Shown here piece after piece: positions 1,816 through 61,100 of a stretch of 64,000 nucleotides of DNA. How positions within the stretch are numbered: the stretch's first letter is position 1; the number at the start of each line of letters is the position of its first letter. This DNA is from an uncultured Candidatus Saccharibacteria bacterium (GTDB lineage Bacteria; Patescibacteriota; Minisyncoccia; Sungbacterales; HO2-52-23). The stretch is from NCBI GenBank assembly GCA_964585475.1, contig CAZPDF010000001.1, positions 1,441 to 65,440 on the forward strand, in the 5' to 3' direction. The position numbers were made by a program, and so were the translations under genes. Under the pieces are notes generated by a model. It was not told where the DNA came from. It did no database searches and was given only the letters and a program-made list of their open reading frames with translations.

Positions 1816-2241
1816 TCATGTCTTTTTCCTGTCCTTTTCCATTTCAGCAGTTTCAACCGCATAGACTGCCTTATGCAGTCTTCCATTTTCTAAGTCGGTG
1901 GGAAGGTTATAGCCGTAACAACTTGAGCCTGGTATTACTGGTTTCCACCCCGCCTTTTCGTATATGGAGTAGGCAGGATCATTTTCGGCAATTGAATTGA
2001 ATAGGAGACCCGCCTTTTTCCGTAAATCAAGAAAGTGATTAAGTTCGTTGAGAATATCTTTCCCAAATCCTTGGTTTCTCGCGTGTGGTAAAACAAACAC
2101 CAGTTTTATGTAATAAAACGGGAATGGGCTGTTTCTATATTCTAAATTTGCGAAGCCGACCATATCGCCTTCTGTCTGTAGTTCAATACGATGTATTTTC
2201 CCCTCTGTCGCGGGAGGTTTAAGGTGTTCAAATTCTTTCAT
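1816..2241 (-). CDS. GNAT-family N-acetyltransferase
   Basis: 141 aa with acetyl-CoA-binding-like RNQGFGKDIL and a typical GNAT length. Confidence 0.75.
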   Translation of the reverse strand: MKEFEHLKPPATEGKIHRIELQTEGDMVGFANLEYRNSPFPFYYIKLVFVLPHARNQGFGKDILNELNHFLDLRKKAGLLFNSIAENDPAYSIYEKAGWKPVIPGSSCYGYNLPTDLENGRLHKAVYAVETAEMEKDRKKT

Positions 2242-2406
2242 AATTTTTTAGCCAATTAGGCCTCTCGACAAAAAGTTATTTACCGGCGAGGGGAGGATTC
2301 GAACCTCCGGTACCATTGTTGGTACACCTGTTTTTTCCCGATTTGTCCAAAATTTCGATTCAATTTGAAGAAGAAATTTTGGCAACAAATCGCAATCCCG
2401 TTCAAA

Positions 2407-2723
2407 ACGGAGGCGAGAGGATTTGAACCTCTGAGGGGATTTCGGTTGCCTTCTCGGCAAACCCCAGGGCCGACTTTTGTAAAACGTTCGCAAGGCGCAC
2501 TTAAATAAAGTAGTCGGCCCGCGAAACGATCGGTAATCGTTTCGCCCAGCCGGTTTCTTGCCCCGCACTAAAATTTGGATTTTCGGAAGCGGGAGGATTC
2601 GAACCTCCGATACGGTTTCCCGTATAACGGTTTTCGAGACCGTCCCATTCAACCACTCTGGCACGCTTCCAAATTTTTAGTGCGGGGTCGAGACCGGCGC
2701 TTTAGACCACTCAGCCACGCCTC
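2407..2723 (-). pseudogene. interrupted tRNA-Ser(CGA)-like gene (5' exon-like 2687-2723; 3' part 2407-2555) hosting the intact tRNA-Ser
   Basis: The 5' part GGAGGCG TG GCT GAGTGGTCTAA AGC G CCGGT CTCGA is canonical through position 36. The 3' part AAACCGG ... CAGAGG TTCAAAT CCTCT CGCCTCC G has a perfect 7-bp acceptor pairing. An extra ~90 nt, possibly a second insert, sits between the anticodon stem and the variable/T arm. Confidence 0.5.
2584..2669 (-). tRNA. tRNA-Ser(CGA), type II with long variable arm; no encoded CCA
   Basis: GGAAGCG TG CCA GAGTGGTTGAA TGG G ACGGT CTCGAAA ACCGT TATACGGGAAACCGTATC GGAGG TTCGAAT CCTCC CGCTTCC G. It is flanked by the inverted repeats 2560-2577 and 2668-2686. 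Confidence 0.85.
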
Positions 2724-2934
2724 CGTTTTGTCCGGGACGAGACCGTCCCATTGTTTTGCCTTCGTCGGCAAAACCCAGGGAAATTTTTTACGTTCGCACG
2801 GCTCCGCCGGCTCGCTAAATTTCCCGCGAAAGTCTATAGCTTTCGCCCACTCTGGCATCCCGCCAAATTTTTAGTGCGGGGTCGAGACCGGCGCTTTCAA
2901 TCGGACTCAGCCACCCCACCCCAAGGCGCTAGCT

Positions 2935-2963
2935 CAAAATAGCATTTTTTTCTTGAAAATTCA
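2935..2963 (-). promoter_or_regulatory. candidate sigma70-like promoter for the minus-strand tRNA-Ser array (TTGAAT-17-TATTTT)
   Basis: Reverse complement of 2935-2963 reads TTGAATTTTCAAGAAAAAAATGCTATTTT, placed immediately upstream of the first tRNA-like 5' half. Confidence 0.4.
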
Positions 2964-3032
2964 ACCGGCCGCCCTGCCGAAGGCACGGCTACGGCCGCCT
3001 TGGGGCGACCTGCCTCTAACGGGGTCAATGTA

Positions 3033-3058
3033 AAACCCCGTGCTGTGAGGACGGGGTC
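3033..3058 (-). terminator. rho-independent terminator after the 3066-3938 gene
   Basis: Minus strand: CCCCGTCCTCACAGCACGGGG followed by TTTTACATTG. Confidence 0.7.
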
Positions 3059-3065
3059 GTAAGTA

Positions 3066-3938
3066 TTACTTGAATTCCCAGATAATGCCGGCGCCGATTT
3101 CCATCTCTCGCTTGTTCCCATGGTTCTCGTTAAGTTTGCCGCTCGGGTCAAGGTTTAGCAGGAAACTGTAGTTTCCGCTCAAGCGTAGCGCCAAGCCGTT
3201 AAGGCCTTTGGGAAAGTGGAGGTGCTTACCGAGGTAATATGTAGCGGCAGGAGAGATGCCTATTCGCCGCATCTCAAGGGACCGGTCAAGGTATGCGGAA
3301 GGAGCCAGCGCAAGTTCGATATACTCGGTCGGCCGATAGTAACTGCGGAGCCCCACTTCCATGGTCATGGGGTTTTTATGCTCGGTGGTGGTTATATTGG
3401 TTGCCGGCATGTCGGAGATGATATGGTAGCGGCCGCATCCGTCAATGAGAAAATCTGGGCTGCCAAGAAGTTTCGCACAGGCGCCGATCCAGTGGGTTTT
3501 CGCCCCCCAATCCGGGTTTTTCTCGCCGATATTGTGCATTCTGCGGGTTCCGAGCTCCAGCCGCACCATTTTGAGGAATGCGGGAGTATAGCCGAGTTCT
3601 CCGCCCCAATCAATGCGGTCCGGTGCGTCTGTGCCGGTCAGGAGAGCGAGATCAATGTATGCCTCGAATTTACCCCACTGCGGATCCTCAAAGAAGCGAT
3701 ACTGCGTCTGCATTCCAAGTTTACGGGTCGGGCTCTTTTGGGCATCTCTAACTTTGGTATCAAGCTGTAGCATCCGGTTGTTAAAGACGGACCACTCGTG
3801 GGAAAGTTCGAAACGAAGCGCAGGATCCTGATCCCACCTAATCCCAGAGTATGGCTCGTATGCCGAGGTGTTCGAAAAGGCCAGCAACACGGCCAAAACA
3901 GCGAAAATCGAGGCAAAACGAAGGTAATTCTTGCTCAC
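3066..3938 (-). CDS. secreted hypothetical protein (signal peptide; C-terminal IIWEFK)
   Basis: 290 aa with N-terminal MSKNYLRFASIFAVLAVLLAFS and an aromatic-rich C-terminus. No recognisable catalytic motif. Confidence 0.55.
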   Translation of the reverse strand: MSKNYLRFASIFAVLAVLLAFSNTSAYEPYSGIRWDQDPALRFELSHEWSVFNNRMLQLDTKVRDAQKSPTRKLGMQTQYRFFEDPQWGKFEAYIDLALLTGTDAPDRIDWGGELGYTPAFLKMVRLELGTRRMHNIGEKNPDWGAKTHWIGACAKLLGSPDFLIDGCGRYHIISDMPATNITTTEHKNPMTMEVGLRSYYRPTEYIELALAPSAYLDRSLEMRRIGISPAATYYLGKHLHFPKGLNGLALRLSGNYSFLLNLDPSGKLNENHGNKREMEIGAGIIWEFK

Positions 3939-11629: not shown

Positions 11630-11779
11630 ACCACCCTAGGAGGTTGTCCCAAAACTATAAAAACAACACTTTCGTCATTCTGAGCGAAGCGAAGAATCTC
11701 GTATTTAAGCCATTTCTAAACAGTGGAGATTCTTCACAAAGTTCAGAATGACAGTTTTTAGACAGCCCCCTAGGGGTGG
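11630..11779. repeat. MITE-like nested inverted-repeat element, family A, copy 1
   Basis: Outer IR CACCACCCTAGG/CCTAGGGGTGG. Inner IR CGTCATTCTGAGCGAAGCGAAGAATCTC / GAGATTCTTCACAAAGTTCAGAATGACAG. A second copy is at 49495-49620. Confidence 0.7.
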
Positions 11780-11788
11780 AAACTACAA

Positions 11789-11976
11789 TGGCCCCAATGG
11801 GATTCGAACCCATGTACTGGGCTCTTGCCCTCCCACTTTTTTGTTTGCCGCCACCGGGATTCGAACCCGGGTACCGGGCTTGAAAAGCCCGTGTCCTAGA
11901 CCAAGCTAGACGATGGCGGCGTCAAAAGTGGGAGGGTGAAAAAAGCCCATGTCCTAGGCCTCTAGACGATGGGGCC
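11789..11976 (-). repeat. nested tRNA-Glu locus: Glu-type tRNA-like gene split in the anticodon loop (5' half 11937-11976, 3' half 11789-11824) by an IR-bounded insert carrying the intact tRNA-Glu
   Basis: 5' half GGCCCCA TC GTCT AGAGGCCTA GGAC A TGGGC TTTTTTCA. IR CCCTCCCACTTTT / AAAAGTGGGAGGG, then CAAG A. 3' half GCCCA GTAC ATGGG TTCGAAT CCCAT TGGGGCC A, with a perfect 7-bp acceptor pairing between the halves. Confidence 0.6.
11846..11920 (-). tRNA. tRNA-Glu(TTC)
   Basis: GCCGCCA TC GTCT AGCTTGGTCTA GGAC A CGGGC TTTTCAA GCCCG GTAC CCGGG TTCGAAT CCCGG TGGCGGC A. Confidence 0.85.
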
Positions 11977-17696: not shown

Positions 17697-17732
17697 CAAC
17701 ATTCCAACATTCTCAAGAATGTTGGAATGTTG
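17697..17732. promoter_or_regulatory. perfect 17-bp-arm palindrome CAACATTCCAACATTCT-CA-AGAATGTTGGAATGTTG (ArsR-type operator candidate)
   Basis: It shares the core ATTCT-CA-AGAAT with the palindrome upstream of the ArsR gene at 25453-25478. It lies upstream of ORF 17951-18268. Confidence 0.5.
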
Positions 17733-25163: not shown

Positions 25164-25433
25164 CTATTCTAATGTTCTTAAGAATTTGAGAATAGATATT
25201 CCGGTGGAAGTAAGTTTGTGCCGGATTGAAGTTCCATCCGACCGCTTCATTAAAAGACCCGCAATGCCAAGCCGCCGTATATGTTCCGAGATGGTTTTGA
25301 AGTTTACGTCAAGCTTCTCGGAAATTTCCGAAACCGAAAGTTCCGGCTCCCGCCCCAGGAGCTGCATGATCTCAATTCTTCTATGGTTCGCGAATCCCTT
25401 CACGATCCGCTCAAGTTCCCTTGTCTTTTTCAT
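25164..25433 (-). CDS. ArsR/SmtB-family transcriptional regulator
   Basis: 89 aa with winged HTH: RRIEIMQLLGREPELSVSEISEKLDVNFKTISEHIRRL. Confidence 0.8.
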   Translation of the reverse strand: MKKTRELERIVKGFANHRRIEIMQLLGREPELSVSEISEKLDVNFKTISEHIRRLGIAGLLMKRSDGTSIRHKLTSTGISILKFLRTLE

Positions 25434-25452
25434 TCCTTTTTATGATACTTTA

Positions 25453-25478
25453 TTCTAATATTCTCAAGAATATTAGAA
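25453..25478. promoter_or_regulatory. operator-like palindrome TTCTAATATTCT-CA-AGAATATTAGAA upstream of the ArsR gene
   Basis: Perfect 12-bp arms, about 20 nt upstream of the regulator's start codon. A degenerate copy lies at 25164-25196. Confidence 0.6.
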
Positions 25479-25563
25479 TAAGAGTTTTATCACATGTTCC
25501 GTGGCATTTTTTATATTTCTTTCCGTATCCACAGGGAGTTAATTTGTAACGCGCGGAAAAATA

Positions 25564-28527: not shown

Positions 28528-28568
28528 GGCGCAATCGGAGAAAATCTGCTAGATTATATGGCATAAGT

Positions 28569-28750
<182 letters not shown>

Positions 28751-28751
28751 T

Positions 28752-29090
28752 ATGGGAATCTATCGTCATACGCAGGAAACATTTGCGGATCGTAGCGGCA
28801 CCATAATTGAGGCCGATCTCCTGGGCACCATTGATACAGAGAGCCCTGAATATCAGGAGGCGTATCTCGGTTTTCTCAAACGCAACCGGGCAGTGATTGA
28901 GAAGAAACTTCGAGGGGAGCCGATATCGCGTGAGGAAGATGAGCATCTTTTTTCTGAAGCGGAAGAGCTTGTGGTGACGTTTCCGCCTGACGACCCAATC
29001 AAACCGGAACATGCGGTCTTGCGTGATTTGCGTGAGGCGATGCTTGATCAATTTGAGCTTGTTTCCGAAAAAGACATGGATCGCCTTTAA
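28752..29090 (+). CDS. hypothetical protein
   Basis: 112-aa acidic ORF. Confidence 0.4.
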   Translation: MGIYRHTQETFADRSGTIIEADLLGTIDTESPEYQEAYLGFLKRNRAVIEKKLRGEPISREEDEHLFSEAEELVVTFPPDDPIKPEHAVLRDLREAMLDQFELVSEKDMDRL

Positions 29091-35388: not shown

Positions 35389-36069
35389 ATGATTTTTTTC
35401 GATAACGTTTCTAAAATCTATAACCATAATTCCGTCGCGTTGAAAAACGTGACTCTTCGGATTGAGCCGCGCGAATTTGTTTCCATCGTGGGTTCTTCCG
35501 GGGCCGGAAAAACAACGCTTTTGAAGCTTTTGATCAGGGAAGAGGAGCCGACCGACGGCAAAATTTATCTTGACGGTTTTGATATAACTATCGTTCCGAA
35601 AAGCGAGATTCATCACGTGCGCAGGCGCATTGGGATCGTATTTCAGGATTATAAATTGCTTCCAACCAAAACCGCCCATGAAAATGTCGCATTTGCCATG
35701 GAGGTGGCCGGAAGATCGGATGCGGAGATCGCCGAGGATGTTCCGCAGGCGCTGGAACTCGTCGGGCTTGCCGATAAGATTAATAATTTTCCACACCAGC
35801 TCTCCGGTGGAGAGAAACAGAGAGTAGCTATTGCGCGCGCTTTGGTCAATCGGCCGGACGTTATTTTGGCGGACGAGCCGACCGGAAATTTGGACCCCAT
35901 AAATACGTGGGAGATCATAAAACTTTTGCAGAAAATAAACATGCTTGATACGACGGTGGTCTTGGCCACGCACGACAAAGAAATTATCAACGCGATAGAC
36001 AAGCGGGTGGTGGTGCTGGACAAAGGGGAAGTAATATCGGATAAAGAAAAGGGGAAGTATTTGGTATAA
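35389..36069 (+). CDS. ftsE: cell division ATP-binding protein FtsE
   Basis: 226 aa. Walker [10 protein letters not shown], signature LSGGEKQR, Walker [12 protein letters not shown]. Confidence 0.9.
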
Positions 36070-36072
36070 CGA

Positions 36073-36223
36073 ATGTTTTTTCGGTACGCCTATCGCTTGC
36101 CCCGGCGAGGCAAGCTCGCTCCAGCGCTCGGTTTCGCTCTCCTCGCATACGCTCGGAACCGTGCCCGCTCAACCTCGCGAGGCCCTCAAAAACATTCGTT
36201 ATACCAAATGAAGAAAGACAAAC
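36073..36223. other. structured 150-nt spacer between ftsE and ftsX, closed by the 12-bp inverted repeat ACGAATGTTTTT/AAAAACATTCGT
   Basis: Terminal IR plus an internal hairpin GCTTGCCCCGGCGAGGCAAGC. ftsE and ftsX are normally contiguous. Confidence 0.45.
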
Positions 36224-43080: not shown

Positions 43081-43267
43081 ATTACTATTTAGGTGGCCCA
43101 CGCACTAATTTCGTAAAGATGTTTATCTTATTGCGGTTAAACATTCGTGGTATCGCCTCCGGCTTACCTAGAGGCCAATAAATACTTATTGCTAAAATTA
43201 GTGCGGGGCATAAGTTTTGTATCCAAAATTTCTTCGCTTAAGGGCTTTAAATTTTGGACAAAGCCTT

Positions 43268-44512
43268 ATGGATCACGAGGAAGCAAAAAAGCCAACCAAA
43301 TTTTTCGGACTTTCCCGGAACGTAATCTCCATGGGCGCGGTGAGTTTTTTAAACGATCTTTCCTCGGACATGATTTTTCCTTTTATTCCGATTTTTCTCA
43401 CAACGGTCCTTGGTGCCAGCGCTACATTTATCGGACTCATAGAGGGGATCGCGGATGCCACCGCCAGCATTTTGAAAATAGTTTCCGGCCGCCTCTCGGA
43501 TAAATGGAGGATTAGAAAACCATTTGCGGTTTTTGGCTATAGCTTGTCGGCGGCAGCAAAGCCCATTTTAGCTTTGGCTTCCGCACCCTGGCACGTTTTG
43601 GCAGTGCGGTTTTTGGATCGAGTGGGCAAAGGTACGCGCGACGCTCCGCGAGACGCGCTCCTTTCACTCTCGGCGGAGAAGCGGCATATCGGCCGTGCAT
43701 TCGGGTTCCACCGCGGAGCTGATACTTTAGGGGCGGCGCTCGGACCGCTGATCGCCTTTGCCGTTTTGCCATTTCTTGGAGGTGAGAGCGAGTCGGGGTT
43801 TCGCAATCTTTTTCTTCTCTCATTTGTAGCGAGCTTTTTTGCGGTACTTATTCTTAAGTTTTCGGTCCGTGAAGTTCGTAATAATATCGATGGCAAAGAA
43901 CCGCTTTTTCCGCCGAAATTTAGATTTAAGTATCTCGGCGTACCCTTTCTTATTTTCCTCGCTGCGGCAACTATTTTTTCTCTGGGAAAGGCCTCGGAGG
44001 CGTTTTTGCTACTCCGCGCGCAGGGACTGGGCGTTGCGATAATGCTTCTTCCGATAATTTATTTTGTGTATAACATCACTTTTGCTCTTTTCTCCACTCC
44101 TGCCGGTATGCTCTCGGATAAAATTGGGCACCGCAATACTTTTATGATCGGGATGCTTATTTTTTCCGGGACTTATTTTTTGTTCGCCCAAGCCACCTCG
44201 TCTCTTGCCATGTGGATTCTTTTCGCTGTCTACGGGTTTTATAGCGCATTTACCGAGGGAGTGGGGCGCGCCATAGTAGCGGATCTTGTGGAGGAAAAAT
44301 TCCGAGCAACCGCCTACGGAATGTACAGCGCCTTCACCGGTTTTGCGCTTCTGCCGGCAAGTCTGGTTTTCGGCATTTTGTGGGATCGCTTCGGGCCCAG
44401 CGTTTCATTCCAGTACGGCGCAATCCTCGGCCTTATCGCGTTCGTAATATTTCTTTTCCTGCGTTTGAAAAATCATCAGAAAGAGATGAATGCCGCATCA
44501 ACACGAAGCTAA
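43268..44512 (+). CDS. MFS transporter
   Basis: 12-TM pattern with the MFS loop motif GRLSDKWRIRKP. Start placed at MDHEE. Confidence 0.75.
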   Translation: MDHEEAKKPTKFFGLSRNVISMGAVSFLNDLSSDMIFPFIPIFLTTVLGASATFIGLIEGIADATASILKIVSGRLSDKWRIRKPFAVFGYSLSAAAKPILALASAPWHVLAVRFLDRVGKGTRDAPRDALLSLSAEKRHIGRAFGFHRGADTLGAALGPLIAFAVLPFLGGESESGFRNLFLLSFVASFFAVLILKFSVREVRNNIDGKEPLFPPKFRFKYLGVPFLIFLAAATIFSLGKASEAFLLLRAQGLGVAIMLLPIIYFVYNITFALFSTPAGMLSDKIGHRNTFMIGMLIFSGTYFLFAQATSSLAMWILFAVYGFYSAFTEGVGRAIVADLVEEKFRATAYGMYSAFTGFALLPASLVFGILWDRFGPSVSFQYGAILGLIAFVIFLFLRLKNHQKEMNAASTRS

Positions 44513-47042: not shown

Positions 47043-47106
47043 AGGGCTTTCTCTAAATTTTCGAGTTCGTAGAACGAAGAAAATTTAGCTAGAAAACCTT
47101 TACCGA

Positions 47107-47368
47107 GCACTCAATTTATTCTGCTATGTATTATGTCTATGTGATTCGTAATCGGAAGTCGCGGGAAACCTATATCGGTTATTCCGACGACTTGAAACGG
47201 AGGTTACGAGAACACAAGGATAAAAATCCGGAGCTTCTGTATTACGAAGCATACAAAAGCGAGAAGGATGCAAGGATACGGGAGAAAAAGCTGAAGCAGC
47301 GGGGGACAAAGCATCCGCTGGCTCAAAGAAAGATTGAAGTACAGTTTAGCAGAATAAATTGAGTGCTC
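47107..47368 (+). mobile_element. GIY-YIG nuclease ORF bracketed by perfect 21-bp inverted repeats
   Basis: GAGCACTCAATTTATTCTGCT (47107-47127) and AGCAGAATAAATTGAGTGCTC (47348-47368) flank the 78-aa ORF. Confidence 0.5.
47126..47362 (+). CDS. GIY-YIG nuclease-family protein
   Basis: MYYVYVIRNRKSRETYIGYSDDLKRRLREH, the GIY...YIG motifs with conserved Arg and Glu. Confidence 0.75.
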   Translation: MYYVYVIRNRKSRETYIGYSDDLKRRLREHKDKNPELLYYEAYKSEKDARIREKKLKQRGTKHPLAQRKIEVQFSRIN

Positions 47369-47721
47369 GGTGCTCAATGCTGTTACCAAATTTTCTTCAC
47401 CGTTGGTTCGAAAATTTGGACATCATTGGCAAATAATAAAAAAGAGGGGCATGTCGCCCCTGAGTTTAGTGGAGATAGGATCCGAGGTCTTTCTCGCGGA
47501 AATGCTTCGTGAGGTCGCTCTCCGACGTGATGACAAAATTGGCGAGGCGCGGATTTTTTTCCTTGATTTTCACCCCCGCAACGGCAGCAGCGATTTCTTC
47601 GACGGCTTCCTCAAGTTCTCGCCACGCCCGCTCGAATCTTTCCTGAAGCATTTCGCGTGTGAAAGAATTCGGAAGCGGCGGTTTATTCTTCCAGATGACG
47701 TACTCGTACGGGGCCGTCACG

Positions 47722-49424: not shown

Positions 49425-49494
49425 GGGAAATCACCCCGTCTTTCCCAATTTATCAGTAGACCAGCGTGCTTAATCCAGATTAGCATGTTAATGA

Positions 49495-49620
49495 ACTGGT
49501 AGCGAGTAAACCCACAAACGTCATTCTGAGCGTAGCGAAGAATCTCTATATTTGTGTCTAAGAGATCCTTCACTTCGTTCAGGATGACAGCTAGAAATGT
49601 CGTGTTACTCGCTACCAGTT
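49495..49620. repeat. MITE-like nested inverted-repeat element, family A, copy 2
   Basis: Outer IR AACTGGTAGCGAGTAA/TTACTCGCTACCAGTT. Inner IR CGTCATTCTGAGCGTAGCGAAGAATCTC / GAGATCCTTCACTTCGTTCAGGATGACAG. Confidence 0.7.
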
Positions 49621-49627
49621 CAATAGA

Positions 49628-49891
49628 ATGGATCAAGATCCAGCCGAAAATCTACAGGAATCCAAAAAACCCCTCAAGATAGGGAAGATTGTAGTTGATA
49701 GAAATTTGTGTATTGGCGCGGCATCCTGTATTGCCGTTGCTCCCGGAGTGTTCGAGCTTGATTCCGAAAATAAGGCAATCGTGTATAATGAAAAAGGAGC
49801 GGATGATGAGACCATACTTTTGGCCGCAAAGTCCTGCCCCACGCAAGCTATATTGGTGTTTGATGAGGAAGGCAATCAAATATTTCCTTAG
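49628..49891 (+). CDS. small ferredoxin (single 4Fe-4S-type Cys cluster)
   Basis: 87 aa with CIGAASCIAVAP...KSCP. Confidence 0.65.
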   Translation: MDQDPAENLQESKKPLKIGKIVVDRNLCIGAASCIAVAPGVFELDSENKAIVYNEKGADDETILLAAKSCPTQAILVFDEEGNQIFP

Positions 49892-51085: not shown

Positions 51086-51479
51086 TATACTGCATTCAGA
51101 TCCAACTGGAGAAAAGAATATGTTTGGCAATGAGCGCGTGAGGCATTGGCCTAATCCTGGCGGGAGTCCTGGTGACTTCGGTTTCGGCAAGACCAAACCC
51201 AAGAAGAGGCGGCTGTTGAAACTAACTCTTGAAAGGTTGAGTAATGTTCAATAACGAGCGCGTGCGGCATGATGAGGGTGGCATCGTTGTTGCCTGTCCA
51301 CACTGTAAAGCCAAGGTATTTAAGCCGATCAGGATAGGCGGAGTTTCTTGTTGCCCACTGTGCAAGACCCCATTATTTAGATAGTAAGCCGACGATCTCT
51401 GACCGTTCGGTTTTTTATTTGTTTGTCCAAATTTTTGAGCAAGATGTGCGATGAAAATTTGGTTCACAAACAAATAACC

Positions 51480-51630
51480 CCTCACCAATTTTGCCAAGTA
51501 TTACAGAATGGGGTCGATGGGTATACCCAATCGAGATCCACCCGCGAAGCGCGCGTGCCGAATAGGCACATCCCTAATGGGCGAAGCGTTTCGCTCTCTA
51601 CTACTTTGTAAAATTGGTGACGGGGTTGAT
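51480..51630 (+). repeat. IR-bounded ~150-nt element, family B, copy 1 (upstream of htrA)
   Basis: Termini CACCAATTTTGCC/GTAAAATTGGTG. Core GCGCGTGCCGAATAGGCACATCCCTAATGGGCGAAGCGTTTCGC, near-identical to the inverted copy at ~56420-56560. Confidence 0.6.
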
Positions 51631-51639
51631 TTTAGAATC

Positions 51640-51667
51640 TTGACGAATTGATTCCCAGTTATATAAT
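51640..51667 (+). promoter_or_regulatory. sigma70-like promoter TTGACG-16-TATAAT for htrA
   Basis: TTGACGAATTGATTCCCAGTTATATAAT. Confidence 0.55.
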
Positions 51668-51873
51668 TTGAAGGAAAGGCGCGAAGTCGAGTTCAGCTCG
51701 ACCAAGCGCTACTTTAAGAAAATGCAGCGAGCGAGTGTAATTCTATTTAGAGACAATGGGAGGAGCGATTTGCTTGGTTCCGCGCAATCGCGGAAAATCG
51801 CGACGACCCTTAGCGAGGCCGCCGCAGGAGCGGCCGAGTCGTGTCGAGAAATAGAATTACCGAGCAAACGGTT

Positions 51874-53270: not shown

Positions 53271-53627
53271 GTTTGCGCGGTTTTTCCAGAGCGTAAAACA
53301 TCCGCAGAGAAAAGAGATAAGAAAAAATCCATACATGAGCTGCGCCCCCAGCGGATGTTCAAGTACTTGAAAGGTAAATGCAATCACTATGACGCCAACT
53401 GAATACCCCAGTACTGACCCGCAGTTGATGCCAAAGATATGTCGCCGGAAAGTCATCGCCGCCAAGTAGCCGACCAGAAGCGATATGAGCATCCACCCCA
53501 TTAAGATTAGCCGACTTAGCACTTCAAAATTATTGTGGATTAGCACGATTCCGCCTAAATAGGGAATGGGGATCAAAATAAGACATATTCCCGCCAGACG
53601 CCTTTTCCATATGACGGTCATATTCAT
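53253..53627 (-). CDS. small polytopic membrane protein
   Basis: 124 aa, four TM helices. Confidence 0.45.
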   Translation of the reverse strand: MNMTVIWKRRLAGICLILIPIPYLGGIVLIHNNFEVLSRLILMGWMLISLLVGYLAAMTFRRHIFGINCGSVLGYSVGVIVIAFTFQVLEHPLGAQLMYGFFLISFLCGCFTLWKNRANQNQPD

Positions 53628-54358
53628 CGCAATCCTCCGGTGCCACCCCTTAACCGCATTTTGAACGTTTCATTGTCTCGCCAGGAGACCAGTTTTTCCT
53701 GCAGGCCTTTATAGATCAGCCGATCGAATTTTTTCCCTTTGAAAACGATGAGATAATGATCCGCAAAATCAAGCGCGGGAATTTCTTCCAGCTTTTTCGC
53801 ATCGCGGAAGAAGAGATGAATCTTGGCCCTCCATAGCCAGAGAGCGACACTCTCGGGCAAGGGACTATGCATAATAGAAAGGAGCATGGAGGTATCATTG
53901 AAGTCGGCGATCGAGCGCTCTAGAAATTCAAAGATCCTTCTGCCTTCTCTATCCAGAAATCCTTCCGGCACAAATCCGCCCTTTATCATTTTTTCTTCAG
54001 CTTGAGCAAGATCGGCCAGTGTTCGCATCTCGCCAAGATTTTGCAGAAACGGCCTCCAGGTGTCGAGCCCCTCACTTTGGAAATGGATCTCCGGCCGTTC
54101 TTCGATGAGGCGGTCGCAAGTTACACCGACGCACTCTTTAGAGTATTTTGCGAGCGCGCGGGCGGTTTCTTGGCAAATGCGTGAAGGAGCATAGAAAACT
54201 TTATCAAAAGGATATTGATCAAATTCCATCCGCACGAGATCTTTTAGATATCGTTCTCCTTTATCCTCTTTTTTTAGTCCGGCATCGGGGTCGTTTGAGG
54301 CGCGTTCCCCAAAACGCATGAGACTCACGCCTATAAGCTGGTCGGAGTTATTCGCCAT
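53624..54358 (-). CDS. hypothetical protein (weak histidine-phosphatase-like RFGE motif)
   Basis: 244-aa ORF. LMRFGERAS resembles RHG only loosely. Confidence 0.4.
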   Translation of the reverse strand: MANNSDQLIGVSLMRFGERASNDPDAGLKKEDKGERYLKDLVRMEFDQYPFDKVFYAPSRICQETARALAKYSKECVGVTCDRLIEERPEIHFQSEGLDTWRPFLQNLGEMRTLADLAQAEEKMIKGGFVPEGFLDREGRRIFEFLERSIADFNDTSMLLSIMHSPLPESVALWLWRAKIHLFFRDAKKLEEIPALDFADHYLIVFKGKKFDRLIYKGLQEKLVSWRDNETFKMRLRGGTGGLR

Positions 54359-54412
54359 AGTTCCCCACGTTTTTCTGGAACTGGATATAGTATAAATATG
54401 ATGTCGGCTTTG

Positions 54413-54562
54413 GTCAACCCCGCACCTTTTATGCGCTAGGCCACCTCGCGAGCACCGGATTCTTATACCTATTCGGCACTTACTCTATACAGAGTTAATC
54501 TCGGCATACAGTGTACCTGTGAGGTGGCTGGTGCGATGCGGCGCATAAAAGGTGCGGGGTCA
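54413..54562. repeat. MITE-like element with perfect 24-bp terminal inverted repeats (GTTGACCCCGCACCTTTTATGCGC)
   Basis: Arms at 54413-54436 and 54539-54562. Inner IR GCCACCTC/GAGGTGGC. The termini contain the CCCCGCACC motif shared with the tRNA-locus repeats. Confidence 0.65.
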
Positions 54563-55075
54563 ACTAATCCCTTGGTTTGACGAAAATTCATTGTAGGTTT
54601 ACTTTTGAAGCAAGACCCTTTGGAGTAAAAGAAGATGAATGGGGCAAAGATCTTCTGCCTTCGATGCGAGAAAGAAATAAGTTCAGCGAATCATGAGTGT
54701 GATTTCGAAGCCGCGACAGGTTTTTCCATAGTGAGTGCGTTTAAGGACTCATTTTCACATCGTCCCCTGAAGCCAAAATCAATATGGAAGTTCTTTGTGG
54801 TTTTAGGGATCCTCGGCATCCTTGCTTTGCTTATTGGTGTATTATTCTGATCTGGCGAGTTTCCCGGACTGCCGTAGCAAATTTTCCTTCACTTAGGCCC
54901 TTAGCAGATAGTTAAACTTTGGACAGGCAACTCGCTTGTCTTTTTGTATTTTGTTTCCTGCGATATCCACACGCCTTCCAAGAGCCGGTTGAGGCAATGG
55001 TTGGAAACGCTGGCGTGGGTTCCGAAACGCGCCGAAGCAAGAATCCCGCAGGGGCCTTAAAGTTTTCCAGAGACA

Positions 55076-55103
55076 GGCAGTCGAAATCTGGCTGCCTTTT
55101 TAT
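55076..55103 (+). terminator. rho-independent terminator
   Basis: GGCAGTCGAAATCTGGCTGCC TTTTTATTT. Confidence 0.55.
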
Positions 55104-55104
55104 T

Positions 55105-55262
55105 TACCCCGTTACAAGAAAGCCACGGGTGTAAGCCCGTGGATGAATTGCGCCGTTCCTGCCAGCCTTAAGATAAAATGCCACGAGCGTAAGCTCGTGG
55201 TCGCCTTGTAACGGGGTTTACCGGGAAACCCCGCACGAAGTGCGGGGAGGGTGTCATTTAAT
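55105..55262. other. structured non-coding element: 12-bp closing helix CCCCGTTACAAG/CTTGTAACGGGG, twin hairpins with YGTAAG loops, then CCCCGCACGAAGTGCGGGG hairpin
   Basis: CCACGGGTGTAAGCCCGTGG and CCACGAGCGTAAGCTCGTGG hairpins inside the closing helix. No ORF. Confidence 0.4.
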
Positions 55263-55335
55263 ACCTTTTTAACTCTTGACTTCGATACCGACTATATGAT
55301 AAGATTTTAACGGTACTCTTATAATAATAGGGTGT

Positions 55336-55776: not shown

Positions 55777-55923
55777 ATCGAGATCCGACCCGGTAGTCGG
55801 ATCTTTTTTCTTTTGACTTTTTTTGAGCTCATGTTATAATTAACGGCACTGGGGCTTCCTTGGCCTGAAGGAGTACCCCAGTATTTGGGTTCTAAACGAG
55901 AGACGACGACGAGGAGGATGACG

Positions 55924-56268
55924 ATGGCAAGATCAAAGATTGTGGTTAAATACTTCAGCGACCCGAACTTCAGAGAGTACCACGTGAGCAAGGAGATCTC
56001 TCTGTCTCACGAGATTTTCAAGAGACCGCTCCGCCCCCGATCCAATGAGTATCTGAAAAGGGTCGGCAAGGTAGGCGCAGAGCTCGTGAGGGATATCATC
56101 GCAGTGCCGGGTGTCGCTTCGGTCGGCATCGAGTCCTACCACCTGTGGGTGTCGAAGGGACATGCCTTCGAGTGGGCGGAGATCGAGTCCTATGTAGTTA
56201 ACGCCCTCAAGCAGGCAGTCGGTACGGATGTCGAGGTCGTTGAGCCAACGCCCTTCCCTTACCGTTAA
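55924..56268 (+). CDS. hypothetical protein
   Basis: ORF starting MARSKIVVKYF; no motif recognised. Confidence 0.4.
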   Translation: MARSKIVVKYFSDPNFREYHVSKEISLSHEIFKRPLRPRSNEYLKRVGKVGAELVRDIIAVPGVASVGIESYHLWVSKGHAFEWAEIESYVVNALKQAVGTDVEVVEPTPFPYR

Positions 56269-56419
56269 GTTGTCGGGTTAGAATACAAGTGGCGTTCAGG
56301 CCCGCCGCTCGTGTTCGCCCCGCCGAAACAGCCAGTCGTAACTAAGGGGAGGCCGCAAGGTCCCCCCTTCCTAATTATGCTCTTGATTTCCGTAAAAAAT
56401 TTTGGTATACTAGAGGTAT

Positions 56420-56560
56420 TAGTAGCCTTCCCGCCCTAATTTTGCTAGATAAAACAAGCGCAAGACGCTTCGCCCGTTGAGGGATGTGCCTATCCGGCAC
56501 GCGCGTCTTGTTAGGATTTCCGGGTGTGTACTTTGCTGGGGTTTATACTTTTTGATAGGG
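56420..56560 (-). repeat. IR-bounded element, family B, copy 2 (upstream of clpB, inverted relative to copy 1)
   Basis: Reverse complement reads CTAATTTTGCC...GCGCGTGCCGGATAGGCACATCCCTCAACGGGCGAAGCGTCTTGCGC...GCAAAATTAG. Confidence 0.6.
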
Positions 56561-56630
56561 CAAAATTAGAGCGGGATGGTCATAATTTCAGCGAAAATTT
56601 GTTCGCTGAAACTCCAAATTTTCGGAAATT

Positions 56631-59306
56631 ATGCCACCTTTTCAACAATTCACCATCAAAGCCCAAGAGGTCTTGAAAAAAGCGCATGACCTTGCGCTGG
56701 AAAGATCACATCATCAAATTGATGTGCTGCATTTGCTTACCGGATTGATCTTGCAGGAGGAGGGGACGGTGGACGCGATTTTGGAAAAACTTGAGATAGA
56801 TGTTTCCATGATTGCTGACCGGCTTCTGGAAACTCTGGACTCGATGCCTCGCGGGGCAATGATCGCGACCCCTCTCGGGCAGGTCTATTTGACGCAGGAT
56901 TTGGCAAAAGTGATCGAGCAGGCGCATAGGGAAGCGGCGCAATTGAAAGATGAATTTATTTCAACCGAGCATCTCTTCTTGGCATTGGTTGAGGTACCTT
57001 CCAGGGCCAAAGAAATGCTTGAGCGGGAGGGCCTGAATAAAGAGATGATTTTACGCGCTTTAGCCGAGCTTCGAGGCGGGCAGAGGATTACCGACCCCGA
57101 ACCAGAAACTAAGTATAATGTCATTGAAAAATACGCGCGTAACTTGACGCGCCTGGCGCGTCAGGAAAAACTCGACCCCGTGATTGGGCGCGAGAACGAA
57201 ATCAGGAGAGTCATGGAAGTTTTATCCCGCCGCACGAAGAATAACCCTGTCCTTATCGGAGAAGCGGGGGTGGGGAAAACAGCCATTGCCGAGGGATTGG
57301 CGCAGAGGATAGTTTCCGGCGACGTGCCGGAAACCCTGAAGGATAAGGACCTTATTTCCGTGGATCTTGCCGCAATTGTAGCGGGCACCAAATACAGGGG
57401 AGAATTTGAGGATCGGGTGAAAGCGATTTTACGCGAGATCGAGAGAGCGCAGGGTAAATACATAATTTTTATTGACGAGCTGCATACGATTGTCGGCGCC
57501 GGGGCCGCGGAAGGCGCGATTGACGCCTCCAACATGTTAAAACCGGCGTTAGCGCGCGGAGAACTCCATGCTATTGGCGCTACCACCCTCAAAGAATATC
57601 AGCGCTATATCGAGCGCGATCCGGCCCTCGCTCGCCGCTTCCAGCCGGTATACGTGGATGAGCCAAGCGTGGAAGACACCGTTGCGATACTGCGGGGGCT
57701 CAAACCAAAATATGAGGCGCATCACGGGATTAAGATCACCGATGGCGCTATTGTGGCTGCCGCCAATCTTTCGTCGCGCTACATAACTGATCGTTTTCTG
57801 CCGGATAAAGCGGTGGACCTAGTTGACGAGGCATCATCTTCCCTGCGTCTTGAGATGGACAGTCTACCCAAAGATCTGGATGACACGCGGAGGAGAATTA
57901 TGAAGCTTGAAATTGAAAAGGAGGCCATCAAAAAGGAGATTGACAGAAAAAGTAAGGAGCGGTTGAAAAAACTTGTGAGTGAAATTGCGGAGCTGCAAGG
58001 TGGCACGCAAGCCATGGAAGAAGCGTGGAAGCAGGAGAAAGAAACCATTGTCGGGATCCGCGCCATGAAAAAAGAGTTGGATACTGCGCGTCAGGAATCG
58101 GATATTGCCGAGAGAGCGGGAGAATTCGGGAAAGTAGCCGAACTTCGCTACGGAAAAATTCCGCAGACCGAGACCAAGCTTGACGAGGCCGAAAAACTTC
58201 TTAAGAAACTTCAGAATTCTCGGCATCTTGTGCGCGGGGAAGTTACGGAGGAAGATATCGGTTCCGTGGTCGCCCGCTGGACCGGAATTCCGGTAACGAA
58301 GATTCTTGAAACCGAAGCCGTGCGCTTGACGAAGATTGAGGAAGAGCTTAAAAAGCGAGTCATCGGGCAGGGAGAGGCCGTTGAGAAAATTGCGAATGCG
58401 GTGCGCCGCTCAAGAGCCGGCATTGCCGAGGAAAATCGTCCCATCGGCTCCTTCATATTCTTGGGCCCCACCGGAGTAGGAAAAACCGAGCTTGCCAAAA
58501 CCCTGGCTGAGTTTTTATTTTCGGACGAGAAGGCCTTGATTCGCGTGGATATGTCCGAATACATGGAGCGACACACGGTTTCCAAATTCATTGGCTCTCC
58601 TCCCGGATACGTAGGGTATGAGGAGGGGGGCCAATTGACCGAGCTTGTGAAGCATCGGCCCTATTCGGTAATACTTTTTGATGAGATAGAAAAAGCGCAT
58701 CCGGAGGTCTTCAATGTTCTTTTGCAGATTCTGGATAACGGGCGTTTGACCGATGCCAAAGGCCGCATGATTAATTTCAAAAACACGATAATTATAATGA
58801 CTTCCAATATCGGCGGGGAGTATGCGCAAGAGATGGGGAAAATAGGATTTGCGAGCGGAGACGAGGATACCAGGGAACGGAAAGAAGGCGACATGAAAGA
58901 TAAGATAAGAAAGGCCCTTGAGCGTCATTTCCGGCCTGAGTTTTTGAATCGCCTGGATGAAATAATAATTTTCTCCTCGCTTACGCCGGAAGTCATCCAA
59001 AAAATTGTTGAAATACAACTCGAGCGCGTGGTTAAGCGTATGGCCGGGCGCGAAATATCTGTTTCATTCACCGGAGAGGTCAAGAAATTTATCGCGGAGA
59101 AGGGTTACGACCCGACTTACGGAGCGCGGCCCCTGAAGCGCGCGATCCAGACGCATATTCTTGATATGCTCGCGCAGGAAATTATTGCGGGGAAAATCGG
59201 GGAAGGGGATGCGGTTTTGGTTGACGCCAAAGACGGGAAGGCGGTTTTTGGGAAAGGAGTTAAAAGAGTTGGAGGGAAAAGAGCGGTGGTAGTGGCGAAA
59301 AGTTAA
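56631..59306 (+). CDS. clpB: ATP-dependent chaperone ClpB
   Basis: 891 aa. Clp-N domain. D1 [10 protein letters not shown]. Long coiled-coil M-domain. D2 GPTGVGKTE. Sensor GARPLKR. Confidence 0.95.
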
Positions 59307-59665: not shown

Positions 59666-60457
59666 TTATTCAACCTCGGTCGTCGTTTTGATTCTGACAA
59701 CCCCATCGAGACGCTGCATGTTGCCCATGAGCGACCCGATAGAGTGGAGGATCTCGGGAGTTCTACGCGCCGTGACCGTCATCTCCATTGTGATTTTGAC
59801 TACTCTTGTGAGTGGCGATTCGGGCTCGGGCTGGATTGGGGCGTCGGGCTCGACCGGAACTATGGCATCAGGCAATGCAGTAGGTGGAGTGATTTGGTGA
59901 GCGGGTTCTGCGGCAGGCACTGGGCGTTCTCTATGAGTCCAGGGGGTTTGTATAATCCGTTCCTTGAAGTTGGCGAGTTCCACGAAATTGAACTCGGTTT
60001 CAAAGAGCGGGTCGAGCGAACGACTAAGCATTGACCTCCCCTCATGGTCTAACCCCCGGGTCGCGACCCACCAGATCTTGATGCCTTTTTTTGCTTTCTC
60101 TGAGAGAACCGGCGCGTAGTCCTGGTCGGCGGTTACGATCACGATATCCGAAACTTCGGAGGGCTTAAGTTTTCTTATTGTATCGATGATCAATTGATCA
60201 TCGGCCCCGTTGATGGTCGAAGTGATGAACGCATCGAATCCTGCGGATTCAAATCTCTTAGCTAGGCTTTGGGGGTAGGGGACGTTTGAAGATATCGTCC
60301 ATAGCGGTTTTGGGTGAATCTTGGAGGCCGTCCCTATCTCCTCTGTTAGTATTTTGAAAAGAACATGGTACTTGACGTGGTCTATGCCGAGGATCGGTCG
60401 CATGAAGGAAAACGAGGGGCCGTCAACAAACACCGCTTTCGCCTTCTTCTTTGGCAT
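59666..60457 (-). CDS. NYN-domain (LabA/YacP-like PIN-fold) protein with Pro-rich C-terminal extension
   Basis: 263 aa. AVFVDGPSF...GADDQLIIDTI...IVIVTADQDY. Confidence 0.7.
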   Translation of the reverse strand: MPKKKAKAVFVDGPSFSFMRPILGIDHVKYHVLFKILTEEIGTASKIHPKPLWTISSNVPYPQSLAKRFESAGFDAFITSTINGADDQLIIDTIRKLKPSEVSDIVIVTADQDYAPVLSEKAKKGIKIWWVATRGLDHEGRSMLSRSLDPLFETEFNFVELANFKERIIQTPWTHRERPVPAAEPAHQITPPTALPDAIVPVEPDAPIQPEPESPLTRVVKITMEMTVTARRTPEILHSIGSLMGNMQRLDGVVRIKTTTEVE

Positions 60458-60529
60458 CTTCTGCCTCCCTTGTATGAAATTTTACTCCTGTTAAAGTATA
60501 GCAGATTTTATATGTTCTGTCAAATTAAA

Positions 60530-61040
60530 TTTTAATCACGCGTTCTGCGTTCAAAAATTTAGGTAGAGTCCTTAAAAAGAGTGCGGCCGGATCCAGAAGG
60601 ATCGGCCGCATGTTGAGGAAGAATATGTGTTCGCGCTTTTTTTCGCGCGTGAATTGTTGGGAAGGAACGGAAATCTGGTGGAGAGTCGGCGCAAGGTCCG
60701 AAGAGGGCGATTGGTTCGCCCGGGGCCGTGGTTCTTTGAAAACCGACAGATCAGCTTGCAGGCGCCGACCCTCCAATGATTAATTTTGCGCCGCTACATC
60801 GCTAGCCGCAAGTGTTGGTTATCCACAGGGCTTTGTCCAAAATTTGGAGTGAGTACGCGCGAACAAATTTTGGTTACAAAACCTGTGCCCCGCTCTAATT
60901 TGAGTAATGAACATGTTTTGTCGTTGAGTAAGCCGCAGGCGTTACCGTGGGTTAAGCCAGGAAATGCTGCTCAAGCCTCAGACGAAATTAGGGCGGGGCT
61001 AAGGGCTTTGTTGAAATTCCGGCAAAGAAAAAAGAGATCT
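60530..61040. ncRNA. ~500-nt GC-rich structured non-coding region, candidate ncRNA of unidentified class
   Basis: Nested helices GGAGAGTCGGCGC..GCGCCGACCCTCC, GCGGCCGGATCC..GGATCGGCCGC and GGGCGATTGGTTCGCCC. Only low-complexity ORFs overlap it (60786-61085, 60525-60776). No RNase P, tmRNA or SRP consensus was recognisable by eye. Confidence 0.3.
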
Positions 61041-61075
61041 TTTAGATCTCTTTGGTTTGGAAATAGTTTGCGATG
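61040..61075 (-). terminator. rho-independent terminator after nth
   Basis: Minus strand: AAAGAGATCTAAAAGATCTCTTT followed by TTTCTTTG. Confidence 0.65.
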
Positions 61076-61100
61076 GCTTCGATGAAGTCAGGATCCGCTT

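Follow-up and report, generated by a model that had tools for sequence, protein, structure and literature searches.

The 64,000-nucleotide (64-kb) stretch of uncultured Candidatus Saccharibacteria DNA analysed here, hereafter called the window, was found to carry two copies of a folded repeat, one upstream of htrA (copy A, 51478-51626, + strand) and the other upstream of clpB (copy B, 56426-56579, - strand). The two copies are members of different subfamilies of one dispersed structured repeat family, which has at least 50 distinct relatives in genomes and metagenomes of Patescibacteria, also called Candidate Phyla Radiation (CPR) bacteria. Comparison of the members has shown that the structure is under selection, its outer stem P1 being selected on one strand only, and that a short linker, X', predicts the genomic context in which a member is found. 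We tentatively read these features as those of a site-directed, non-autonomous and probably mobile (now or once) repeat family which folds as a single strand and chooses its site by means of X'. This reading is a serious possibility, though it stays short of being probable.

Structure and setting of the two copies

Throughout this study S denotes the strand on which the family core reads GTGCCGAATAGGCAC and R denotes its complement; S is the + strand in copy A and the - strand in copy B. The window contains exactly two occurrences of the 25-mer GCGCGTGCCGRATAGGCACATCCCT, one per strand, and 100 dinucleotide-preserving shuffles of the window gave none. In the main element of copy A, which shares its core with copy B, a long outer stem P1 (51478-51497 paired with 51606-51626) encloses a variable hairpin (about 51509-51540) and the inner stem P3 with the core three-way junction (51544-51594), and the latter includes the hairpin P4, GTGCC-GAATA-GGCAC (51555-51569). 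The core and P3 of copy B occupy 56460-56512 on the - strand, with the exact 25-mer at 56480-56504. An initial annotation of the window had placed an element at both positions, in opposite orientations relative to htrA and clpB, and this was confirmed together with the P4 hairpin and the termini which it had quoted (CCAATTTTGCC...GTAAAATTGG in A and CTAATTTTGCC...GCAAAATTAG in B). Its description of the copies as near-identical holds for the core of ~40 nt, where they differ by two substitutions and one single-base indel, but not for the outer stem, P3 and the variable region of ~55 nt, all of which differ. The stem differences are compensatory; for example, CACCAATTTTGCC/GTAAAATTGGTG in A is represented by CTCTAATTTTGCC/GCAAAATTAGGG in B.

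Each copy folds as one long hairpin with a three-way junction, and on the S strand the fold was better than that of shuffled sequence with z = -7.8 for A and z = -4.8 for B. The covariance model R1, described below, scored copy A with 114 bits (E 1.5e-21) and copy B with 117 bits (E 3.9e-22, at 56429-56576). Directly 5' of each copy lies a further hairpin, P0, which the initial annotation had missed. In copy A it spans 51415-51477 on the + strand (TTATTTGTTTGT...ACAAACAAATAA), has a 12-bp stem, an inner hairpin and a 3'-side bulge, and starts in a T-run after the preceding + strand open reading frames (ORFs). The same architecture was found in L049, L067, L050 and L018 (L001 to L086 are the labels of the 86 genome and metagenome loci compared with the window). 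In copy B, P0 lies at 56580-56635 on the - strand and one of its arms holds the clpB start codon: in + strand letters, CATAATTTC (56582-56590) pairs with GAAATTATG (56625-56633), and the ATG of clpB is at 56631-56633.

The position relative to the predicted promoters is different for the two copies. The predicted clpB promoter, TTGATT-17-TATACT with a TG before the -10 box (extended -10), lies at 56383-56411 on the + strand and would start the transcript a few bases before copy B. By the position of this promoter, the reverse complement (R) of copy B together with P0 forms a predicted clpB leader of ~210 nt, in which CAUAAUUUC pairs with GAAAUUAUG, the stretch holding the AUG; the minimum free energy fold pairs the start codon. 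A local effect of this predicted leader on the translation of clpB is plausible. For htrA, the predicted promoter TTGACG-16-TATAAT that had been reported after the element was recovered at 51640-51667 on the + strand, with 11 of 12 matches. It begins 14 nt downstream of copy A, and copy A is therefore outside the predicted htrA transcript. Copy A occupies the interval from where the small ORFs before it end to the htrA promoter; the T-run before it is preceded by a weak hairpin only, and the terminator scan made no call. The stretch holding copy A is probably not transcribed, and a direct role of copy A in the expression of htrA is improbable. A long-range stem of 12 bp, GTAATTCTATTT/AAATAGAATTAC (window 51737-51860), extends over the 5' leader predicted for htrA and the region where the ORF starts, and may be a separate structure controlling htrA.

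The wider family and its folded strand

An exact-pattern scan for the core gave 9 loci in CPR genomes labelled Sungiibacteriota, Saccharibacteria, Tagabacteria or unclassified, and 70 loci in metagenomes. Among the latter, 54 are true members and 16 were discarded, being chance occurrences of an 18-mer in unrelated, mostly GC-rich sequence, several of them apparently coding. The model R1 found additional copies without the exact core, often in loci that were already known. Three copies occur within 8 kb in L004, and two each in L010, L008, L068 and L081. The initial annotation had offered a repeat family as one of its two explanations, and the presence of at least 50 members, with several loci holding two or three copies in 8 kb, supports it. 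In L068 (579-929) two members stand in tandem on the same strand and the P0 of the second has apparently lost its 5' arm to the tail of the first; the two could stem from insertion at one target, nested or side by side. A gathering-threshold scan of the whole window against Rfam release 15 returned tRNAs only, and searches at E up to 10 around both copies gave chance-level matches only. Full-text literature searches, for CPR structured RNAs and repeats and for the core sequence, returned no description of the element. This family of dispersed structured repeats in Patescibacteria/CPR is apparently undescribed so far.

The full unit is ~215 nt long on S and consists of P0, the linker X' and a hairpin of ~148 nt bounded by P1. 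The order within the main element on S is 5'-CCCCGCNNNAATTTTGCC (5' arm of P1), the variable region, P3, P4, AUCCC-loop-GGGCGAAGCG, P3', a linker and GGCAAAATTNNNGC(T)GGGG-3' (3' arm of P1). The P1 arms, 16-20 nt in length, are present in all members. P4 is GUGCC-GRAYA-GGCAC, a hairpin with a G-R-A-Y-A loop, and the unpaired core nucleotides (this loop, AU and CGAAG) are near-invariant. The length of the main element is held to 145-156 nt, with the core in one of two positions, ~43 or ~79 nt in from the 5' end, and there is also a short form (~90 nt).

A structure alignment, A2, was prepared and R1 was built from it, and the pairing statistics were obtained on 37 members. In these members 95.9% of the pair cells are canonical and 13 pairs are changed on both sides, values of pairing and covariation which none of 500 shuffles reached; slid controls paired at 33-42%. 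The covariation supports P1, P3 and P4. In the copies found by R1 the P4 stem covaries further (GAAGC/GCUUC, GCGC/GCGC, UAGCC/GGCUA, GGCC/GGCC and GCGCC/GGCGC) and the loop is still G-R-A-Y-A.

S is indicated as the strand on which the element folds by P1, which contains 38 G.U pairs against 7 A.C pairs when read on that strand. In L071 four G.U pairs occur in one P1 stem and all of them become A.C mismatches on R. P3 has shown no strand bias (11 vs 8). The predicted folding energy of the main element was better on S in 31 cases and on R in 16 (48 tested), and that of P0 in 37 and 7 cases, respectively (45 tested); the strand-neutral count on P0 was not significant, and in class 1, defined below, it gave 21 vs 13 with no clear bias. 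Both hairpins, P0 and P1, carry bulges. Thus, as judged from the alignment, the structure is shown to be under selection, and P1 on the S strand only. Two other causes of the bias were considered and rejected. Replication direction was set aside because, by inspection, A and a further element E (described at the end) have S on the + strand and B and the further elements C and D have it on the - strand within 20 kb. Transcription-linked deamination was set aside by argument only, as it would predict the opposite direction at class-1 loci. A peptide-coding element was also rejected: the core gives RVPNRHIP in one frame, in spurious ORFs without consistent starts or stops, and no reading frame is kept, since the spacer from CCC to GGG changes in length by 3-7 nt.

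P0, the X segments and the two genomic contexts

In most members P0 lies directly 5' of P1 and is a two-tier AT-rich hairpin with a 2-nt bulge on the 3' side, whose outer and inner stems covary. The linker X', located between P0 and P1, is complementary both to X, at the 5' foot of P0, and to X2, in the tail after P1, and can therefore lengthen either P0 or P1. X, X' and X2 read GCCAT, ATGAGC and GCCAT in most members. They read GGCAT, ATGACC and GGCAT in L056 and in copy B of the window, where X2 is decayed to GGCTA; L025 shares this X and X'. A third set, GGCAA, ATTGACC and GGCAA, was found in L010 (9052-9199), at a TTG start, and the set of copy A and its relatives is TTAT(T) or TTAA for X, AATAA or ATTAA for X' and TT(G)AT for X2.

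These segments go together with two classes of location. In class 1 (~29 loci, including copy B) S is antisense to the neighbouring gene, the start codon of which coincides with the first three bases of P0. X is here the reverse complement of the start codon and the first two bases of the second codon, and AUG and second codon are paired in P0; where the start is TTG, X' reads ATTG. The X' types AUGAGC, AUGACC and AUUGAGC stand antisense at ATGGC, ATGCC and TTGGC start codons, respectively. The gene start is 39-60 nt from P1, most often 41, and within operons the stop codon of the upstream gene is 8-14 nt from the element. By Pfam, the class-1 neighbours are GroEL in 7 loci (always between groES and groEL), L27 (rpmA) in 5 and NusG in 4, and further L11 (rplK), L32, DnaJ, HrcA, NusB, RbfA, RF2, YebC, GAPDH, ParA and a tyrosine recombinase; L35 was assigned from a reading of its N-terminus and not by Pfam. 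In class 2 (~13 loci, copy A included) S is co-directional with the preceding gene and follows its stop codon. P0 holds no start codon in this class and begins in or beside a T-run, X' is of the types AAUAA and AUUAA, and in L049, L067, L050, L066, L016 and L032 the T-run follows an evident terminator hairpin. Across the members compared, the type of X' is shown to predict the context class.

On the reading that we favour, the element would be non-autonomous mobile DNA, at present or formerly, which folds as a single strand and whose insertion site is picked by pairing with X'. Insertion would take place directly upstream of a start codon, leaving the coding sequence undisrupted, or between a terminator and the promoter that follows it. 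Copy B would have inserted between the clpB promoter and the start codon, so that its reverse complement became the 5' leader of clpB with the AUG in the P0 stem, and clpB translation would probably be affected by this leader. Such a mobile repeat accounts for the match between X' type and context, for the fixed orientation in each class and for the filled and empty sites described below, as well as for the location of copy A in a probably untranscribed gap and for the same ends around other contents.

The family might instead consist of small stable RNA genes transcribed on the S strand. An RNA of ~150 nt would have its ends paired by P1, as in Y RNA, 6S RNA or a leader-trailer processing stem, and a three-way junction with a protein-binding GNRNA-type pentaloop, and P0 would be a promoter or processing signal. 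The S-strand-specific selection on P1, the covariation of P3 and P4 around near-invariant unpaired nucleotides, the conservation of the core across genomes labelled as different CPR groups and the tight length of 145-156 nt despite two core positions are in agreement with such genes. Stems of the same type also flank a functional tRNA gene (see below), like the processing stem of a stable RNA. However, no convincing S-strand promoter was found. P0 itself was rejected as a sigma-70 promoter for an S-strand RNA, as its TTGT../..ACAA arms are spaced from 18 to ~45 nt, which does not fit sigma-70, and the promoter scanner gave a weak 9/12 match on P0 at B and none at A. Moreover, S of class 1 is antisense inside highly expressed operons, and the P0 of class 2 begins in a T-run, in several loci after a visible terminator, which makes read-through unlikely. 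A housekeeping RNA would not usually occur several times within a few kb or be present in one close relative and absent from another, and there is no Rfam family match. We therefore regard small RNA genes as an unlikely explanation of the family. P0 was also considered as the promoter of a leaderless mRNA on the gene strand and rejected, since there is no -10-like hexamer at the right distance.

A duplication was noted at a short-form element in L005 (6380-6640), where the last ~20 codons of rplL (L7/L12) occur twice, flanking a 30-nt spacer and the element. Both copies encode the same peptide and all differences found by hand translation are synonymous, from which the upstream rplL copy and the element have probably arrived together on foreign DNA by recombination. 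A short-form element is present at the same place, after rplL, in L028.

Filled and empty sites in relatives

By its ClpB protein the window comes from a Sungbacteria-like organism. Seven contigs with ClpB 80-88% identical to that of the window (L080-L086) were compared as relatives, and most of them keep the gene order cysteine desulfurase, NifU, superoxide dismutase, NifU, HtrA, ClpB, Nth. The element is present upstream of clpB in only one of the seven, L081 (ClpB 88%), and is missing there in L080, L082, L083, L084, L085 and L086; upstream of htrA it was found in none of the five relatives whose contig covers the region. The empty site of L083 (7100-7160) reads TTGATT-17-TATAAT-accctcaa-ATGCC, with a promoter homologous to that of the window and a clpB start 8 nt after the TATAAT box, which gives a near-leaderless mRNA. 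The filled site of the window reads promoter-agaggtatt-AGTAGCC-[B+P0]-ATGCC and that of L081 reads ..GGTAAGCC-[element+P0]-ATGCC. By comparison with the empty site of L083 and with X2 of other loci, the AGTAGCC of copy B (56421-56427, + strand), between the promoter and the element, is a decayed ATGCC start motif; this X2 looks like the old start site of clpB, the AUG of which would since have been lost. Other relatives carry something else at this place. L080 (9860-10003) has a different clpB leader of ~95 nt made of AGCTT-rich repeats, a long hairpin ending at the AUG, with the homologous promoter 5' of it, and in L082 the place is taken by another element, ATCCCGCACCTATTCTAGAC...GTCTAGAATAGGTGCGGGA, bounded by stem ends of the same kind as those of the family. 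Within this clade the leader region of clpB evidently shows great plasticity.

The clpB genes of the window and L081 are 76.7% identical, with 50% identity at third-codon positions. The main element is about as diverged as clpB, with compensatory changes in P1, P3 and P4, and homology of the window to L081 has its limit within the base of the stem. In L084 (3546-5297) a NifU-like gene encodes 583 aa, against the usual ~220-290 aa, and has a faint LAGLIDADG match between two NifU_N matches; this may be an intein or homing-endonuclease insertion.

The predicted leader at clpB raises another explanation, a cis-acting mRNA leader or intercistronic riboregulator on the R strand. Here P0 would hide the start codon and X2, as a decoy (usually AUGGC), would compete for X', giving an on/off switch worked by temperature, ligand, protein or ribosome traffic. 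In ~29 loci the start and second codons are paired in P0 at 39-60 nt from P1, and X, X' and X2 change together with the start codon (ATG or TTG) and the second codon. The predicted clpB promoter puts copy B and P0 exactly in the 5' leader, R also forms the groES-groEL spacer, and the operon stop codons lie 8-14 nt from the element. The stretch of P0, linker and P1 end is 56/57 identical between the window and L081, against the 50% at third-codon positions, and chaperone neighbours (groEL, dnaJ, hrcA, clpB) are frequent. Yet the 38 G.U against 7 A.C pairs of P1 on S mean A.C mismatches on the mRNA strand, up to four per stem in L071, and ~13 members including copy A have no start codon in P0 and follow a preceding stop, where no gene is regulated. 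The neighbours (ribosomal proteins, NusG/NusB, GAPDH, ParA, RF2) form no coherent regulon, and in close relatives clpB has a near-leaderless promoter or a leader of quite another kind. As an explanation of the whole family, such a switch is possible but seems rather unlikely to us. A conserved decoy ORF starting at the upstream AUGGC was checked by hand and rejected, since neither its length nor its frame is kept in L012, L003 and L029.

The second explanation offered in the initial annotation, a stress-responsive cis-element shared by htrA and clpB (operator, thermometer or small RNA), was mostly left unsupported by the opposite orientations and by the position of copy A outside the predicted htrA transcript. 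In its specific form this would be an operator of the CIRCE/HrcA or HAIR/HspR type, or an RNA thermometer common to both genes. Both window copies do adjoin protein-quality-control genes, and some members adjoin groEL, dnaJ and hrcA. Nevertheless, A and B are oppositely oriented relative to their genes and differ in position relative to the promoter, copy A being upstream of that of htrA. Most of the neighbours are housekeeping genes (L27, L11, L32, L35, NusG, NusB, RbfA, RF2, GAPDH, ParA), and the stress side is represented by groEL (7 loci), dnaJ and hrcA. Conservation at the same loci did not hold either, as the element is absent at clpB in 6 of 7 relatives and at htrA in 5 of 5. The covariation of RNA type over 150 nt goes beyond what a protein operator needs, and the element resembles neither CIRCE, which is TTAGCACTC-N9-GAGTGCTAA, nor HAIR. 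A shared heat-shock site is thus very improbable. What survives of the stress idea is that copy B with P0 is the predicted clpB leader with a paired start codon, and that relatives occur at the starts of groEL, dnaJ and hrcA.

Points against a mobile repeat

Several findings weigh against the mobile, site-directed repeat that we favour. No autonomous element or transposase with these ends was found in the window and the 86 loci (~680 kb). Y1 (IS200/RAYT-like) transposase genes were seen in L080 (20659-21339), L031 (10682-11374) and L062 (3143-3709), where Pfam identified Y1_Tnp on the L080 copy and the other two are 36-39% tblastn matches to it, and none was found in the window. These genes are flanked on both sides by their own palindromes of ~23-29 nt, e.g. 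CTATAGAGGTCGGACCTCTATAG, which are unrelated to the element, and the RAYT/IS200-like Y1 link was rejected on this account for the three loci. No family copies were found in viral contigs, phages and plasmids, and carriage by phage or plasmid was likewise rejected. Copies from the window do not stand closest to one another within the family, and a recent burst is therefore not indicated. P1 is not flanked immediately by a direct repeat; X and X2 form a direct repeat of 5-6 nt which flanks P0 and P1 together, and their identity may be the mere result of both pairing with X', that is, a structural switch and not a target duplication.

The conservation of the element also points away from simple mobility. 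The core is kept across genomes labelled Saccharibacteria, Sungiibacteriota and Tagabacteria, with P3 and P4 covarying. As far as the alignments go, this exceeds the normal need of a MITE (miniature inverted-repeat transposable element) and points to an RNA or protein-binding function. At clpB, the 57 nt that comprise P0, the linker and the end of the P1 arm differ at one position only between the window and L081, and the element recurs at the same genes across genomes (groEL 7, rpmA 5, nusG 4); together these suggest that the element is not junk but has a local function under selection. The clpB leader could be a mobile module that was recruited to this place, and the small RNA and the mRNA switch are in this way compatible with a mobile origin.

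Comparison with known systems

We do not place the element in any named family, as no target duplication lies directly at its inverted repeats, no cognate transposase was found in the window and the 86 loci, and the geometry of the putative guide is different. The closest kinds are repeats of the ERIC/Correia/MIRU type and, for the targeting, the single-strand mechanism of IS200/IS605. Like ERIC/IRU, Correia, RUP/BOX and MIRU/MITEs, it is ~100-150 bp long with long terminal inverted repeats and forms one long hairpin. It shares with them the absence of coding capacity, the occurrence in several copies at intergenic or intercistronic places in either orientation, co-transcription with neighbours, long and short size classes (here ~148 and ~90 nt) and a variable presence from one close relative to another. 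Within operons it abuts stop and start codons, as MIRU does. In contrast to ERIC/Correia-type repeats, its apparent copy number (window and loci) is modest, an internal core of ~40 nt is conserved across CPR groups with P3 and P4 covarying, one strand is favoured (G.U bias) and the extra hairpin P0 takes in the start codon of the neighbour. To our knowledge, the three-way complementarity of X, X' and X2 has no counterpart in ERIC or Correia elements. Unlike in MITEs, the inverted repeats do not directly adjoin a TA or another fixed target duplication.

Strand-specific folding and bulged hairpins are shared with IS200/IS605, PATEs and REP/REPIN-RAYT. The target of IS608 is set by guide tetranucleotides, which pair with the cleavage sites. 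The element has a short segment by the foot of a hairpin that is complementary to the flank, its putative target, and to its own end; its insertion would be orientation-specific, and Y1 transposase genes exist in related genomes. It differs from IS200/IS605 in that P0 and P1 are dissimilar hairpins, the putative guide is 3' of P0 and not 5', no transposase is linked to the element and the Y1 genes seen carry other palindromes. The resemblance to integron attC sites lies in imperfect, variable hairpins (85-156 nt for the element vs 57-141 nt for attC), in a structure that is kept more than the sequence, in one functional strand, in an extrahelical base (the T in GC-T-GGGG) and in the window-L081 homology boundary in the stem base. 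The variable content is, however, inside the hairpin and not between hairpins as in attC, and a conserved core is present. The attC boxes (RYYYAAC...GTTRRRY; R-box GTTRRRY) were not found in P1, and the elements are solitary or paired, with no cassette ORFs, array or integrase.

Thermometers and translational riboswitches that sequester the start codon or the Shine-Dalgarno sequence are comparable with class 1, in which the start codon is paired in an AU-rich stem, a decoy upstream of it may compete for the anti-start strand and several of the genes are heat-shock genes. A position in the 5' untranslated region, on the mRNA strand, is given by prediction for B and for the operon-internal members, and does not apply to A or the ~13 class-2 members. 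The differences are that selection on the main stem acts on the opposite strand, P0 holds no gene start in a quarter of the members, no aptamer family matches and the neighbours are mostly not heat-shock genes.

The genomes of CPR/Patescibacteria are very small and compact and little is known of their non-coding DNA. Our study has revealed a folded module of ~215 nt which recurs at the starts of essential, highly expressed genes (groEL, L27, L11, NusG, ClpB) and takes up hundreds of bases in intergenic regions that relatives keep short. If mobile, it has a targeting logic which spares the genes landed on, and it may be a source of new 5' leaders, including those of chaperone genes. If it is an RNA, it represents a class of structured RNA that is widespread, covaries well and has no known function. 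The alignment A2 and the model R1 provide a defined model for searches of metatranscriptomes and complete CPR genomes. Start codons beside such leaders may be mis-called, as the lengths of 900-950 aa given to ClpB homologues suggest.

Hairpins with the same ends and other repeats in the window

Several hairpins of the window have the same kind of CCCCGC.../...GCGGGG ends; in total, the 64 kb hold two strong copies, one degenerate copy and three elements with the same ends but other contents. The diverged member, copy C (54417-54560, - strand), has the outer stem ACCCCGCACCTTTTATGCGC/GCGCATAAAAGGTGCGGGGT and the degenerate core GTGCCGAATAGGTAT, and R1 scored it with 29.5 bits (E 4e-4). Element D (43098-43280, - strand) has the outer stem CCCCGCACTAATTTTA/CGAAATTAGTGCGTGG at 43098-43208, another interior without the core, and a P0-like hairpin at ~43215-43280. 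Element E (60815-61004, + strand) begins with a P0-like hairpin (~60815-60881), followed by the stem CCCCGCTCTAATTT/AAATTAGGGCGGGG (60882-61004), again with another interior and no core; the P0-like hairpins of D and E share a repeat. Element F, a 112-nt hairpin ACCCCGTTACAAG...CTTGTAACGGGGT (55106-55217, + strand), has no P0 and comes directly after a hairpin and T-run that by eye are terminator-like. The long non-coding stretches (0.4-1 kb) at 54360-55335, 56270-56630 and 60460-61100 are unusual for a small CPR genome and are full of hairpins (C, F, B, E and others). The ORFs at 53624-54358, 55885-56268 and 59666-60457 gave no Pfam match.

Stems of this kind also surround tRNA genes. A tRNA-Ser(cga) unit (2561-2687, - strand) is bounded by a perfect 16-bp stem, CCCCGCACTAAAAATT/AAATTTTAGTGCGGGG, and lies inside the anticodon loop of another tRNA-Ser-like gene. 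Nested arrangements of tRNA genes inside tRNA genes were seen in three regions of the window, 2150-3150 (- strand), 11789-11936 and 28560-28760. The nested genes are tRNA-Ser(cga) (2583-2671), tRNA-Glu (11846-11920) and tRNA-Thr (28618-28691), each enclosed in an inverted repeat of 10-16 bp starting with CCC/CCG and each in the anticodon-loop region of a second tRNA-like gene, which for Ser and Glu is apparently of the same isotype. A repeat of the tRNA-Ser arrangement lies at 2842-2897. Rfam gave no group I intron at the nested tRNAs. In L034, a tRNA-Val is flanked by a similar repeat, CCCTCCCACCAAT/ATTGGTGGGAGGG.

A broader form of the mobile reading can be speculated, in which the module is guide-directed and moves as single-stranded DNA or via RNA. 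X' would pair with first codons or terminator T-tracts, the start codon and coding sequence would be left intact and a new structured leader would be supplied, with the three-way-junction core as a handle for a protein. The same ends would carry replacement tRNA genes into tRNA anticodon loops, as part of a general 'insert and compensate' strategy of CPR bacteria. Taken as a whole, this scheme is unlikely.

Other repeats were noted in the window. A perfect or near-perfect 28-nt palindrome, ATTCCAACATTCTCAAGAATGTTGGAAT, occurs in three copies (17701-17728, 25166-25193 and 25452-25479) and could be an operator or a REP-like hairpin. Long perfect inverted repeats are found in intergenic DNA at 47102-47371 (25-nt arms, 220 nt apart) and 36059-36209 (22-nt arms, spanning 151 nt). 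A repeated hairpin, CGTCATTCTGAGCG(A/T)AGCGAAGAATCTC, with 27 of 28 bases identical, occurs at 11673-11700 and 49519-49546; the hairpins extend over 11674-11752 and 49520-49588, the latter within a 147-nt hairpin at 49484-49630. The motif GCGAAGC is present in this repeat, in P0 and in the core, and recurs in many loops of the genome.

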